Shown here in pieces: positions 26,615 to 29,884 of a stretch of 64,000 bases of DNA. The stretch lies in assembly GCA_963752285.1 (NCBI GenBank), contig CAVVXN010000005.1, positions 320,001 to 384,000 of the forward strand, read 5' to 3'. Under the pieces are notes generated by a model. It was not told the DNA's origin. It saw nothing but the letters and a program-made list of their open reading frames with translations, and ran no database searches. Origin of the DNA: an uncultured Planctomycetota bacterium. Lineage in GTDB: Bacteria; Planctomycetota; PLA2; JAEUHO01. Each line of letters opens with the position of its first letter. The stretch's first letter is position 1. The translations under genes were made by a program, and so were the position numbers.

Positions 26615-26704
26615 GGGCGACGCGCCCCCAACCCCCTTCGCCCGTCACCTCTCCCTGGTCGGCGCGGGAGGTGCCGTGCGGAGCTTGGCTCCTTACGTCT
26701 CGCT

Positions 26705-27167
26705 GTAAGCGCCCAGGGGGTGGAGAGCCTGAAATCGGCGGCAGCTCGCCGAAACCGCCGCCGCGTGCTGATCTGATCGATCGCTTGAAGGCGTGGGCGC
26801 GTGATGCGACGCCCGCCGAGAGGGAAGCTGCACGGAAACTACGGACGCAGTACCACACCCGAGTCGAGAAGGAGGTTGGTGACCTACAGGACGCTCTGCG
26901 GAGACAGGGCGCTGGCCTCGATGAGTATGCCGAGAAGTCATTCAATGCGCGTCAGGGACTTCGCTCTGCCGAGCGCGAGTACGTTCCCAAGGATCTGAGA
27001 CCCGCCTTTGACGCCAGCGACGCTCGGACTCCGACGTCGTTCGAGGGAATGGTGTCAAGGTAATGCGTGACCAGGGTGGGACCCGGGAGCAGGCGCTGCG
27101 GACAATCGCCGAGAAGGCCCGCACCGGATTCAACAAAGACGTTGACGACGTGATCTTCGGGAGATGA
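26705..27167 (+). pseudogene. Start-less polymorphic-toxin-like C-terminal domain 1, frameshift near 27056
   Basis: KRPGGGEPEIGG...ARKLRTQYHTRV...PTSFEGMV / KVMRDQGGTREQALRTIAEKARTGFNKDVDDVIFGR*; stop overlaps the next start (ATGATG). Confidence 0.6.
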
Positions 27168-27385
27168 TGGACACCATGAGCAACTACGAGTGGCTGCTTC
27201 AGACACGGATCGCCTGGACCCGCACCGGGAACCAGAAGTTTCCGTTCCGCGCCCAACACGGGTCGATCAAGCTCGAGTTGTACAGCGGCGACTGGCCGAG
27301 CGAGAATCCGTATACGCTCTACGTCAACGGCGCACCGGCGTTCGGACTCGGGGATCTTCCGGCGAACTGGTCGATTCCTGAATAG
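27164..27385 (+). CDS. Small putative immunity protein 1
   Basis: WTRTGNQKFPFRA...GDWPSENPYTLYVNG...DLPANW; translationally coupled to toxin tip 1. Confidence 0.65.
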   Translation: MMDTMSNYEWLLQTRIAWTRTGNQKFPFRAQHGSIKLELYSGDWPSENPYTLYVNGAPAFGLGDLPANWSIPE

Positions 27386-27390
27386 CGCGA

Positions 27391-27495
27391 TCAGAACGCA
27401 CCGCTAGTAGGAAGCAGAGACGGGGCACGCGCCCGGGCAAGTCGAGCGCGAATGGACTCCACCAGAAAGTCGAGGATCGACCGCCACTGTGCCCG
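27391..27495 (-). pseudogene. C-terminal remnant of a second related IS66 transposase
   Basis: RAQWRSILDFLVESIRARLARARAPSLLP vs RAQGRSILEFLVATVQARLVGGKRPSLLP (18/29 identical) at the end of 28275..28940. Confidence 0.85.
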
Positions 27496-27498
27496 AGT

Positions 27499-27954
27499 AA
27501 GCGCCCAGGGGGTTCCGGGGCGCGCCTCGGCCCGCGACTGGGTTCGATCACGCGAGCGGAAGTCAAGTCGCACTTAGAGTCGCGGTTCCCGAAGCGCATG
27601 GGTGAATCCGTCGCCGACTACGAGCAGAGGATCGGCAATCACATGCGTTCCATTGACTGGTCCAAGCCCGTGGAACGGGTAGAACTTCCAGCCGGGGAGC
27701 GCATTGACATTTGGGTTCGCGATGGCGGCGTCCCGGGTGCCTATGGGACAACTCCTGGTACGAAGAGTGGACTGTGGATGGACACGGCTGGTAGACACGT
27801 TGAGAGCTTCGAGCTTCGAGAGCCAACGGTCGTCCTACGCACCACGGCAGCAGACTTTCCCGCGGGGCTCTATCCGGGAGTTGGTGGCCCCGGCGGCGCG
27901 ACTCAGTATGTTCTCCCAGAGAACTTCCTGCAGGGCGCTCGGAGGATTCCATGA
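27499..27954 (+). CDS. Ntox46-like (Tse6-type NAD(P)+ glycohydrolase) toxin tip
   Basis: HMRSIDWSKPVERVELPAG...GAYGTTPGT...VLRTTAA...GGATQY; frame open from the internal IR, first ATG at 27598. Confidence 0.75.
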   Translation, partial: KRPGGSGARLGPRLGSITRAEVKSHLESRFPKRMGESVADYEQRIGNHMRSIDWSKPVERVELPAGERIDIWVRDGGVPGAYGTTPGTKSGLWMDTAGRHVESFELREPTVVLRTTAADFPAGLYPGVGGPGGATQYVLPENFLQGARRIP

Positions 27955-28265
27955 CACGGGATGAGATGCTGTCCGAGATCGCGGGTGCCTTCGACGTGAT
28001 CGCCGTGGCGAGCAAGCGCTTTCCGGCTGATCCGGCCCTCCGGGACTCCAGCCGCATGCTCGCGGATCTTCGCGATCGAGTGCGAGCCCAATGGCCGCTT
28101 CCGAGGGCCGAGGCTCAGGCGGTCAATATCGGTCTGTTCGCCGTGCGAAATCTAGAGCCGGACATGCCGAACGTCGTGACAGCCCTTGTACGGGTCGAGA
28201 GACTGCTTCAATCGGGCGGCGAGGGCCAGCCCGGCAGCAATCCGAGGTTTCCACCGCAATTCTGA
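27951..28265 (+). CDS. Tsi6-like immunity protein
   Basis: Helical 104 aa with VNIGLFAVRNLEPDMP; ATGA overlap with the toxin stop. Confidence 0.65.
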   Translation: MTRDEMLSEIAGAFDVIAVASKRFPADPALRDSSRMLADLRDRVRAQWPLPRAEAQAVNIGLFAVRNLEPDMPNVVTALVRVERLLQSGGEGQPGSNPRFPPQF

Positions 28266-28274
28266 TGAATCAGA

Positions 28275-29745
28275 TCAAACTGCTGGCAGCAGCGAAGGAC
28301 GCTTCCCGCCGACAAGCCGCGCTTGTACTGTCGCCACCAGGAACTCAAGGATCGATCGACCCTGCGCCCGGAGGCTCTCGCAAACCGTGAGCATCCGCTC
28401 GACGAAGCGCGAGCCCCATCGGCTCGCCGACCCGAACGAGGTCTTCCGCCAGAGGACGGCCTTCCGGACGGCGCGCTCGGCGGCGTTGTTCGTCGGCTCG
28501 ACACCCTCGACGCGGGCGAACGTCCAGAGCGCCGCTCCGTACTCGCGGAGGTCCTTCGCGATCTTGCGCGCCGCCGGGACGGAGCTGTTGATGTGCCGTG
28601 CGAGCAGGTGCTTCAGCCGGAGCCGAAGCGGCGCGAGCCGTCGTCGGAGTCCTCGGCGGGTGAGTTGCCCGTCGCGGACGCGGTACCACTCCTTGAAGAC
28701 CGCCTTGACGATCTTCTGTCCGGCCCGTCCCAGGCTCCTCGCCTTGCCTCCGCGCTCTTCGAGTCCTCGGAAGTTCCGAAGCAGGTGCGCCCAGCACAAC
28801 TGGCGTTTTCGGATTGCGTGCGCCCGGTACACCGAGAAGCGGTCCGACCCGAGGATGCCGTCGAAGTTGAAGAGCAGTCGCCGGAACGCCTCGCGGTTTC
28901 TCCGCCGGTCGATCCGGAAGACCTTCAACTTCGGCGTCACCGCGGCCCAGAGCCACGCGAGCCTGTTCTACTGCCGCCAGGAGGTCTCGTCGCAGTTGAC
29001 GAAGTCGGCGTTCTGGATCGCGTCGAGAGCCTCGTCGTACGCGGGACGCAGCGCCTTGCTCGTTCGCCGCTCCAGCGTCGCCGACCGTTCCGAGCGACAC
29101 GTCGGCCTTCTTGCCGAAGAGCTCGGCCATGACCTCGCGGGCTTCGCGGCGCGTGATCCGGCAGCGGCCGGTCAGGAGCGCGATGATCGCCTGGAAGCGG
29201 ACGCCCGACGCAGCCGGTCGGGACGCCCTCGGGGAGGTCCGCCGTCGTCGTGTGCCCGCAACCCGGGCACTTGGACTCATGGAGCACGTAGTCGGTGACC
29301 TCGGCGACGACGGGCGGGATCTCGACGACCTGGTGATGGCGAGACCTCGCCCGTCGTATCCTTCTCTCCGAGATGCCGACCGCAGTTCCCGCAGCTCTGT
29401 TGGAAGCACCGGGACATTCGTGATCGACGTCCTCGGGCGGGAACGGCGTCGCGCGTCTTTCCCTTGTGCCCGGGCTGCGCTCCCGAGGGACGCCCGGACG
29501 GCTTCTGACTGCGCCGCTCCTCTCCACGGCTTGTCCGACGACGGCGGCTTCGACGAGTTCGTCGAGTCGGCATTCAGCCGGGCAGTCAGTTCGCGGACCT
29601 TCTCCTTGAGGAGGGCGTTGTCCTGACGGAGCCGCCGATTCTCACGGAACAACTTGAAGCGGGCTGCTTCGACGTGCCGGAGCCGGGTCTCGAGTTGCTC
29701 GATCCGAGCAAGGAGGGACGCGACGAGCTCCTCGGAGATTCGCAC
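28275..29745 (-). pseudogene. Single-ORF IS66-family transposase, several frameshifts
   Basis: NSSKPPSSD, GAQPGHKG, SDRFSVY, QLCWAHLLR, EPTNNAAERAVR, SFGSAS across several frames. Confidence 0.9.
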
Positions 29746-29884
29746 GCAGGCGATAGATCGGCTCGCTCGGGGTCAATCTCCACCCCCTGGGCGGTTACGT
29801 CTCGCTTTGTGCGCCCAGGTTGACACGGAGGCGATCCTCGGCGAGCCTACGGGTGCCCGTTCCCTGCCGTTCGAGGAGAGCACC

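Follow-up and report, generated by a model that had tools for sequence, protein, structure and literature searches.

Can an insertion sequence carry a toxin domain into the gene that would deliver it? The exchange of C-terminal toxin domains (tips) in loci of the rhs/cdi type is ascribed to homologous recombination at conserved sequences that precede the tip. A different route is suggested by a 3.1-kb element of the IS66 family that lies at 26705-29798 of a 64,000-nucleotide stretch of DNA from an uncultured planctomycete (hereafter the window, meaning the whole stretch analysed), and that holds two toxin-like tips whose reading frames run through a terminal inverted repeat. From a comparison of this element with its relatives we conclude that it probably belongs to an IS66 lineage that exchanges toxin tips by inserting beside a resident cargo-side inverted repeat (IRR), and that the copy in the window is a decayed stray. 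Positions given without a locus refer to the window; L-numbers denote loci fetched from relatives, and X1 and X3 are public sequencing runs.

Structure of the element and its relatives

A preliminary description of this DNA had reported inverted repeats and an 8-bp target duplication around a 3.1-kb unit, and both were found as described: the outer repeats are complementary at 21 of 22 positions, and the flanking 8-bp direct repeat is exact (Table 1), with a chance of about 1.5e-5 at a fixed place. A third copy of the 17-nucleotide repeat core is internal. The same description had recognised two cassettes, each made up of a repeat, a tip, a coupled small gene and a convergent transposase end, and it can be seen that this too holds. 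In both cassettes the start of the small gene overlaps the stop codon of the tip by 4 nucleotides (ATGA), the small genes are separated from the stop codons of the convergent transposase frames by 5 and 9 nucleotides, and the cargo frames, of 118 and 151 codons, cross the cargo-side repeat in one and the same phase, as x-K-R-P-G-G.

An exact scan of genome contigs for the repeat core returned 76 loci, of which only L034 and L064, both from Planctomycetota, had a related transposase. These two share the layout of the window, with a tip frame that reads E-R-K-R-P-G-G through the repeat. The other 74 were set aside as chance matches, about 100 or more of which are expected from the size of the collection. 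When 401 genomes of the phylum were searched at the protein level, IS66-type matches were present in 31, with 72-81% identity in a handful; within the order, 8 of 40 genomes gave a match at E ≤ 1e-60. A metagenome scan with an intact transposase yielded 80 loci that were kept, 10 of them close (at least 64% identity). No fewer than 10 further genomes, and metagenome contigs of separate projects, show the same architecture as the window.

Distant IS66 relatives (33-57% identity) with a detectable repeat pair had the far repeat 8-84 bp past the transposase stop in all 13 cases, and one close relative in the same set had it 834 bp past the stop. Among 112 transposase rows, none of the 24 with at least 66% identity had a repeat-like site within 110 bp; for the 88 rows at or below 58% identity such a site was present within 110 bp in 79, was not found in 6 and lay at 272-790 bp in 3. 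In a quick maximum-likelihood tree of 108 rows, from which four duplicate rows had been dropped and the broken gene of the window left out, the 20 cargo-bearing rows formed one clade with a support of 97 in the Shimodaira-Hasegawa-like approximate likelihood-ratio test (SH-aLRT), and a cargo-less element was its sister. The cargo labels on this tree were set by ourselves, those of L140 and L142 only by the fact that no repeat was met before the contig end. The cargo of the relatives is therefore neither absent nor random but confined to a single clade, where its length is 0.5-1.1 kb. Because at least nine open, full-length transposase frames of 486-517 amino acids are present in the relatives, the cargo clade most likely is, or recently was, active.

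Reading phase through the repeat

The repeat searches were made independently of reading frame. For 27 of the 28 cargo-side repeats recovered in this way, which belong to 27 cassettes, the longest downstream frame was in the xGT-AAG phase. A repeat was present in five of the 10 close metagenome loci, four of them in this common phase, and the contigs of the other five end before the repeat. In total, 30 of 32 cassettes are in the common phase, two are in phase 0 and none is in the third, so that phase among the relatives is fixed and not random. Copies within a cluster are not independent and a count of clusters is fairer: the tips fall into 25 BLAST clusters (E ≤ 1e-5), 23 of which are wholly in the common phase, with one mixed and one in phase 0. 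Five loci with diverged repeats (L118, L120, L127, L128 and L133) were missed by the pattern and are omitted from the phase count; a K-R-S-P motif can be seen by eye in the tip frame of L118, L120 and L127.

The two exceptions deserve description. At L137:8063-9370(+) a 436-codon frame comprises a signal-anchor-like start and beta-rich domains, then the repeat in phase 0 and the tip. Relative to its phase-2 homologue in L123 this tip has one extra base between the repeat and the domain, and phase 0 is continuous with a 255-codon upstream gene (signal-anchor-like start). In L179 a protein of the host-toxin type, of at least 1060 amino acids, crosses the repeat in phase 0 into a 202-amino-acid tail. 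Since each is continuous with a long upstream gene, both exceptions fit a model in which incoming tips are joined to such genes.

Families of the cargo

The tips of the relatives were compared with Pfam, and 9 of 22 scored above gathering cut-offs: Colicin-DNase/WHH, Endonuclea_NS_2, HNH_4, DUF6883, TNT (78.6 bits), NTP_transf_2, YwqJ-deaminase, Colicin_E5 and EndoU_bacteria. Four further tips above cut-off were assigned to Tox-REase-5, Colicin_D, CDI_toxin_EC869_like and another NTP_transf_2. The genes downstream of the tips gave 5 of 18 above cut-off (YezG-like, Cys_rich_CPCC, Imm26, SUKH-3 and DUF7668), and Imm52 is a further family among them. Judged by these family matches, the cargo is one of polymorphic-toxin tips with presumed immunity genes, as the preliminary description had expected.

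Fusion of tips to large genes

Toxin genes fused in full length through the repeat were found in L125, L145, L143, L132 and L179, and L064 contains a further fused frame (Table 1). The large fused genes span 0.9-1.4 kaa (thousand amino acids), and the fused open reading frames (ORFs) have G+C of the coding type by codon position (third-position G+C, GC3). The layout of the host protein, an Ala/Glu/Arg-rich coiled coil followed by a Cys-rich CxC...CxCxW motif, a Gly/Pro-rich spacer, a helical region and the tip, is shared by L125, L132, L133:1363-3600(-), L143 and L179 and by the database proteins P0004 and P0006, which bear the domain of tip 2 of the window; in P0006 the linker GGKSSAHEG is a variant of the repeat. 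No Pfam domain was found in the host proteins outside the tip. A BLAST comparison among the large host proteins gave no match with the low-complexity filter and only short matches of the Cys-rich motif without it, and MAFFT aligned little beyond that motif. The neighbours upstream of two host toxin genes gave HEAT-repeat and Kdo-kinase-like matches only, and no secretion genes. We conclude that the host genes represent an apparently undescribed polymorphic-toxin scaffold of Planctomycetota, not Rhs or CDI (contact-dependent growth inhibition) proteins. The earlier suggestion of an IS66 lineage that delivers tips is supported in its clade, cargo, phase and fusions, but the Rhs/CDI hosts that it assumed have to be replaced by this Pfam-less scaffold; likewise, the grafting of a tip in frame onto a large gene stands, with entry likely to occur beside an existing repeat and not by random in-phase insertion.

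In three loci, L136:5328-5376(+), L143:3070-3112(-) and L134:5410-5436(+), two or three remnants of the repeat are stacked in frame upstream of one tip. Examples read G-N-R-S-G-G-K-T-R-G-K-R-S-A and G-K-S-S-G-N-R-S-Q-G-G-K-G-G-S-T-S-S. The stacks of L136 and L143 look like the scar of repeated rounds of insertion.

The host of L145 differs in kind. It contains about six repeats of about 75 amino acids (CxTCxxAL...IRCLWxAASR...RPLTHGL...GLLxxLRxRC) that precede a helical membrane-like region and the EC869-like tip, the end of which looks frameshifted when compared with L202.

A potential explanation of these findings that would not need to invoke tip delivery is that the element is an ordinary insertion sequence with a passenger. 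The toxin and immunity genes would then be a self-contained addiction module with an internal start, the phase would simply be inherited, and the long frames upstream would be chance products of GC-rich DNA or of insertions that fell within genes. Tn3-family transposons with toxin-antitoxin passengers are known; tip 2 does have an ATG inside the element (27598), solitary copies, such as those of the window, L115 and L134, lack a fusion to any real gene, and open frames are common at 71% GC. We nevertheless consider this explanation unlikely. The phase is kept across 25 unrelated tip families, and every repeat-tip junction would have had to preserve it. Tip 1 and several other tips have neither ATG nor GTG between the repeat and the domain, the only start codon for tip 1 within the element being a single TTG, and elsewhere the tip families are C-terminal domains of large exported toxins. 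Moreover, the ORFs fused upstream have coding GC3 and a recurring architecture, and the two phase-0 cassettes are both continuous with long upstream genes.

Arrays and target sites

We found that 11 of 28 cargo-side repeats are preceded by the transposase-side inverted repeat (IRL) of a neighbour (...CTGAACGGTTAC) and exactly 8 bp. Identical 8-mers stand before successive repeats in four loci: CAGTGGTA three times in L125, behind the 1318-amino-acid gene, and GCGCGCAG in L124, CGTCCGAA in L116 and AAGGGATG in L114, each twice. Such repeated 8-mers would result if an element entered the 8 bp next to a resident repeat and duplicated them. Tandem duplication does not account for the arrays, because their members differ in tip and their transposases come from different subclades. 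The array of L125 comprises the main gene and three cassettes and that of L114 four elements; L124 and L116 are also arrays. Within arrays a TGA in the neighbour's IRL falls in the tip frame 6 codons upstream, so that displaced tips are closed off. The second unit of L125 is a mini-element consisting of a repeat, a TNT tip, a small gene, 52 transposase codons and 15 nucleotides of the other repeat.

Matching 8-bp duplications also flank four solitary units, those of the window, L115 (GTCGGTTC), L134 (CCGTTCAG) and L127 (CGGCGGTC); the intact unit of L134 occupies 5420-7649. To describe the targets, the 12 nucleotides beyond the transposase-side duplication were scored against a degenerate consensus of the repeat. 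The four units scored 9, 11, 10 and 6 of 12, the window unit accounting for the 9, so that an IRR-like sequence follows the duplication at three of four solitary insertions; among background positions in the window and the loci, scores of at least 9 occur at 0.48%, of at least 10 at 0.07% and of at least 11 at about 0.01-0.02%. A 2102-bp element with repeat, HNH tip, small gene and transposase is 92.7% identical across two genera. The sister transposases of L124 and L125, with about 91% DNA identity, carry different tips, which indicates that cassettes have also been swapped between elements.

This last observation would also suit recombination acting alone, with the repeat and the transposase 3' end as conserved handles and the transposases as passengers or relics, as in the orphan arrays of rhs/cdi loci. 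It is joined by the occurrence of the same tip with different neighbours (L114 7669-8036, and L117), by the many cassettes that retain just a 3' fragment of the transposase, and by the missing duplications at some elements. Recombination alone is, however, quite improbable in view of the exact 8-bp duplications that bound complete units at four solitary sites away from toxin loci, the spacing of exactly 8 bp at all 11 array junctions, the identical 8-mers before successive IRRs and the survival of at least nine full-length open transposase frames (486-517 amino acids).

It is very improbable, too, that the transposase has been domesticated as an integron-like cassette integrase of host toxin loci, with strays such as the window copy as rare accidents. 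A transposase and both ends come with every cassette, several genomes contain solitary insertions flanked by duplications, only 8 of the 40 genomes in the order have the element, a patchy distribution, and a near-identical element is found in different genera; these features speak against domestication, although the strong preference for IRR-adjacent sites, the concentration in arrays behind large toxin genes and the single copy in the genome of the window would agree with it.

Some further features of the loci were noted. In L064 a sequence of about 90 nucleotides (1831-1910 and 2521-2617) flanks a second orphan pair of tip and small gene; it also cuts off a transposase remnant and is unrelated to the IS66 repeats. 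At L114:4402-7399, in the G391 array, about 3 kb is inserted in the transposase gene of the second element. At L135:6824-7378(+) a cassette with a deaminase-like tip stands back to back with the cargo end (6965(-)) of an opposite element, and the 8-mer of L135 together with its neighbour forms the palindrome GCGTGGGTGCACCCACGC.

A model for tip exchange

We observed directly the anatomy of the elements and their duplications, the identity of the cargo and its phase, the fusions, the spacing of 8 bp and the targets that resemble an IRR, and from these observations we propose the following model. The tip of an element would have no delivery region of its own, its frame being open through the IRR, which would encode a short linker of the K/T-R-S/P-G type. 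The target of the transposase would be the 8 bp next to a resident IRR or IRR-like sequence; the element would enter there in the orientation of that sequence, and these 8 bp would be duplicated. Where the resident IRR forms part of the linker of a large toxin gene, the new tip would be joined in frame to the delivery part, and the previous tip would be displaced downstream as an orphan together with its immunity gene and transposase, with the TGA in the neighbour's IRL closing the frame. Repeated rounds would build head-to-tail arrays, and internal deletions would give rise to mini-cassettes. We lean, with some reserve, towards the more general reading that the IS66-type clade is a plug-in system for protein domains, in which the repeat serves as linker and insertion occurs in one orientation 8 bp outside the IRR. 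If that were true, any element of the clade could swap the warhead of a large planctomycete scaffold and leave the old immunity gene behind, mini-cassettes could be mobilised in trans, and transposition, not homologous recombination, would drive the diversification of polymorphic toxins.

Several points weigh against this model. The insertion event, the fused protein and its toxicity rest on comparative anatomy; it is by comparison of loci that we infer transposase-targeted insertion, the making and delivery of the fused proteins, and selection of the process. The host genes have no secretion or delivery domain recognised by Pfam and are not detectably alike by BLAST, and for this reason their role as delivered toxins is also inferred. 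The window copy is broken and unfused, and exemplifies only the stray-insertion branch of the model. One of the four solitary insertions (L127) has no IRR-like neighbour, element 3 of L114 is flanked by different 8-mers and is a misfit to simple stacking, and L119 and L121 do not have matching 8-mer duplications. Many copies come from few related genomes, so that cassette counts are not independent, and the tree is a quick version with cargo labels that we assigned. Finally, the preliminary description had suggested looking for an xKRPGG linker before the toxin domain in Rhs/CDI proteins, and in the tip 2 family such a linker is not general: the repeat-coded motif, in a loose form, was near the junction in 5 of 150 proteins, with about 3 expected by chance, and is not enriched.

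The copy in the window

Table 1. Features of the window element and large genes fused to tips in related loci (aa, amino acids).
Feature	Position	Strand	Remarks
Left target-site duplication, GTCTCGCT	26697-26704		identical to 29799-29806
Cargo-side inverted repeat IRR-A, GTAAGCGCCCAGGGGGTGGAGA	26705-26726	+	x-K-R-P-G-G in tip frame; pairs with 29777-29798, 21/22
Toxin tip 1, no family	26704-27167	+	two frames, split near 27055-27063
Small gene 1, 73 aa, presumed immunity	27164-27385	+	start overlaps tip 1 stop (ATGA)
Transposase 3'-end remnant, last ~34 codons and stop	27391-27496	-	5 nucleotides from small gene 1 stop
Internal cargo-side repeat IRR-B, GTAAGCGCCCAGGGGGT	27497-27513	+	17/17 with 26705-26721
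Toxin tip 2, ~151-152 aa through repeat	27496-27954	+	first ATG 27598; predicted Tse6/TNT-type NAD(P)+ glycohydrolase fold
Small gene 2, 104 aa, presumed immunity, weakly Tsi6-like	27951-28265	+	start overlaps tip 2 stop
Single-ORF IS66-family transposase, DUF6444 + zf-IS66 + DDE_Tnp_IS66	28275-29745	-	broken; Pfam on fragments
Transposase-side inverted repeat IRL	29777-29798	-	pairs with IRR-A
Right target-site duplication, GTCTCGCT	29799-29806		identical to left copy
IRR-like target sequence, TTGTGCGCCCAGG	29807-29819	+	directly after duplication, IRR orientation; 9/12 against degenerate repeat consensus
Fused gene, nucleotidyltransferase tip	L125:7680-11636	-	1318 aa from ATG; junction ..DSGSKRSAYG..
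Fused gene, EC869-like tip	L145:7640-11779	-	1380 aa
Fused gene, Colicin_D tip	L143:2751-5354	-	at least 868 aa
Fused gene	L132:5074-8553	-	at least 1160 aa; runs through repeat into tip
Fused gene	L179:937-4116	-	at least 1060 aa; phase 0
Fused gene, Tox-REase-5 tip	L064		at least 375 aa

The proteins of the two toxin/immunity pairs of the window were compared with the relatives and with Pfam, and those of the second pair also with solved structures. Tip 1 has an intact homologue of 154 amino acids at L135:6505-6966(-) (79% identity); no Pfam match was obtained for tip 1, and a look-up of this homologue gave no family. Homologues of small gene 1 are a 73-amino-acid product that follows the tip 1 homologue in L135 and another in L116, at 35% identity; small gene 1 itself has no Pfam match.

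Tip 2 had been likened to Ntox46, the domain of Tse6. Against Pfam TNT it scored 16.5 bits (E 0.012), under the cut-off of 27, and Ntox46 gave no direct Pfam match on tip 2. When a two-sequence profile of tip 2 was compared with PDB sequences, the best match was Tse6 (4zv0_A, E 0.007). A word-based search for longer proteins bearing tip 2 found none; an exhaustive profile search later found 240 proteins at E ≤ 0.001, with the domain C-terminal, including PAAR-like toxins, an RHS protein and a LysM protein, and in the last two (P0033, P0140) the matched region scored 46-50 bits for Ntox46. The AlphaFold2 (AF2) model of tip 2 had a predicted local distance difference test score (pLDDT) of 92.6, and Foldseek placed Tse6 first (E 5e-6, TM 0.56/0.62), followed by fungal NADases and Tne2, the identity to Tse6 being about 21%. 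Tse6 is the top match of tip 2 by sequence and by fold, two of its relatives carry Ntox46, and we conclude that the modelled fold of tip 2 is that of the Tse6/TNT NADases, which makes it a putative NAD(P)+ glycohydrolase.

Small gene 2 scored 14.2 bits against Pfam Tsi6 (E 0.049), under the cut-off of 26.9, its relative in L124 reached 20.5 bits (E 5e-4), and its profile matched no Tsi6 chain among PDB sequences. In complex predictions with custom alignments, tip 2 and small gene 2 scored 0.70 and the best control 0.30; among solved complexes 116 of 157 attained the mark of 0.70, among mismatched pairs 2 of 215. At least 88% of contacts were common to the runs, and the pLDDT of the partner was 82. 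The tip 2 protein is accordingly predicted to bind the product of small gene 2, though the score may reflect likeness to the solved Tse6-Tsi6 complex.

The transposase of the window was identified from fragments. DDE_Tnp_IS66 scored 75.8 bits (cut-off 23.1, 28275-28940) and DUF6444 37.8 bits, and zf-IS66, in a frameshifted region, reached 22.5 bits, under its cut-off of 27.3; in the intact transposase of L134 the values were 123.7 for DDE_Tnp_IS66, 47.1 for DUF6444 and 30.6 bits for zf-IS66, the last above cut-off. No classical tnpA or tnpB is present. Because the gap of only about 30-50 bp between the IRL and the transposase start leaves no room for them, and because the N-terminal domain is DUF6444 and not LZ_Tnp_IS66, the element belongs to the single-ORF group of IS66 and not to the classical three-gene group.

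Compared with the intact 492-amino-acid transposase at L134:6122-7597(-), the gene at 28275-29745(-) has at least four frame changes and one in-frame stop; in a tblastn search with that protein the last 267 amino acids matched at 82% identity. Tip 1 is broken near 27055-27063, and because one contig of run X3, which otherwise agrees with the window letter for letter, has one additional letter exactly there, the split could stem from an error of assembly or from a difference between strains. The same caution may apply to the transposase indels.

Upstream of the left repeat there is an open frame of 799 codons, which lies over a neighbouring 681-amino-acid gene. Its G+C by codon position is 0.88/0.63/0.54, as against 0.63/0.54/0.88 in the real frame, and it is not coding. 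The element therefore occupies the space between two genes without fusion to either, and the tips of the window have no N-terminal delivery region, in keeping with what had been claimed for them. The element is present once in its genome (4.64 Mb, 5 contigs). Its G+C is 65%, that of the cargo 63% and that of the window 71%, and the low value relative to the window fits a recent arrival from elsewhere.

The window unit is a composite. The right repeat pairs over 22 nucleotides with the left repeat and over only 17 with the internal repeat, which directly abuts the 34-codon remnant of a transposase 3' end; the translation of this remnant, ...RAQWRSILDFLVESIRARLARARAPSLLP..., parallels the C-terminus of the full window copy. 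In what appears to be the simplest history, the tip 2 element would have inserted into the transposase 3' end of the tip 1 element, recombination between the two transposase genes would most likely have left one transposase and the outer ends, and the composite, or its first element, would have landed beside an IRR-like relic between two genes. A homologous left flank representing the empty site was not found in the four related genomes searched. A fourth repeat-like site, on contig 3 of the window genome, was rejected as a chance match.

Three sequencing runs yielded contigs with 99-100% identity to parts of the cargo; they are of low depth and were taken as evidence of presence only. In run X1 a 508-nucleotide contig differs from 27497-27935 at 3 places, the likeness ending exactly at 27497, the outer base of the internal repeat, and another run contig joins small gene 2 to the transposase 3' end (28152-28302) with no differences. 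Two apparent joints in the runs that skip parts of the stretch were discarded, as their sides were 21-22 letters long and did not match the element ends. No run covered the whole stretch (the highest share of sampled words was 0.14), and no RNA run was listed. That the architecture is an artefact of assembly or binning, for which one could cite the 5-contig, 89%-complete metagenome-assembled genome, this missing coverage and the at least one indel that may be an assembly error, is next to impossible given these contigs, which include the 28152-28302 junction and the internal-repeat boundary, and given its recurrence in the 10 or more further genomes and the separate metagenome projects noted above.

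Comparison with known systems

We take the single-ORF group of the window element to be the ISBst12-like group, and its typical ends and 8-bp duplication to be IS66 features. The clade resembles ISBst12-like elements in zf-IS66 and DDE_Tnp_IS66, in the 8-bp duplication, in ends of the form GTAA(G/C)CG and in the absence of tnpA and tnpB. Ordinary members, however, end 8-84 bp past the transposase stop, whereas the clade of the window holds 0.5-1.1 kb of putative toxin/immunity cargo in that place, and it differs from them also in having a coding repeat end and IRR-adjacent insertion. Elements of the IS30 and IS3 families are known to target their own terminal repeats, and are like the clade in inserting by a resident terminal repeat, head to tail and with a fixed spacer; in the literature searched we did not find such targeting described as a route to in-frame fusion of cargo with a host gene. 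Integron cassettes are likewise promoterless modules stacked at one entry with the newest nearest the expression signal. Unlike integrons, the clade has no integrase or attC but a DDE transposase and an 8-bp duplication, and its modules are joined at the level of the reading frame and not only of transcription.

The orphan arrays of rhs/cdi loci, and the sequential displacement of type VI secretion system (T6SS) effector/immunity pairs in Vibrio cholerae (PMC5361080), are similar in that a large toxin gene is followed by displaced tip/immunity modules and a new tip enters at a fixed junction. The modules of the clade differ in having their own transposase, inverted repeats and 8-bp duplications, and the junction is a transposon end. 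A transposon of Burkholderia thailandensis carries a whole CDI locus (PMC6350997). In this transposon and in those of the Tn3 family with toxin-antitoxin genes, toxin and protection genes move together, as in the clade; these carry complete, self-expressed systems, however, whereas the cargo of the clade is a C-terminal module with its 5' side open through the repeat. For the second pair of the window, Tse6-Tsi6 of Pseudomonas aeruginosa (PDB 4ZV0) is the nearest known system, as the best match to the fold of tip 2, with a neighbour that is weakly Tsi6-like and a predicted binder. In contrast to Tse6, tip 2, at about 21% identity and under Pfam cut-offs, has beside it in the window neither a PAAR nor any other part for delivery.

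The preliminary description knew of no earlier account of this architecture. Our search of the full-text literature, a collection with few subscription journals and no supplements, also gave no description of an insertion sequence with an end repeat read in frame into a toxin tip. Among related reports, a 2025 preprint (10.1101/2025.10.01.679605) mentions, in the portion available to us, transposases including IS66 within 6 kb of some WXG-type toxins, and the first 300,000 characters of a 2012 survey of polymorphic toxins (PMC3482391) contain the word 'transposase' once, in a different sense. Passengers of insertion sequences, orphan cassettes and insertion by terminal repeats are thus known singly, and we did not find their combination described. 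Recombination at conserved junctions has so far been the explanation for the exchange of tips. A transposon that brings a tip in frame would be a new route of domain shuffling and, if our reading is true, the nearest bacterial parallel to the delivery of exons by mobile elements. It would also explain the spread of orphan immunity genes and define a new toxin scaffold of Planctomycetota. The insertion site is precise, at 8 bp from a repeat of 17-22 nucleotides, in one orientation and in a fixed reading frame, and might be of use as a tool.

A second, unrelated IS66-family transposase, of the classical type, is encoded in the window at 6862-8241 (+). It scored 273 bits for DDE_Tnp_IS66, 67 for zf-IS66 and 52 for LZ_Tnp_IS66, and has 25% identity to the cargo clade.

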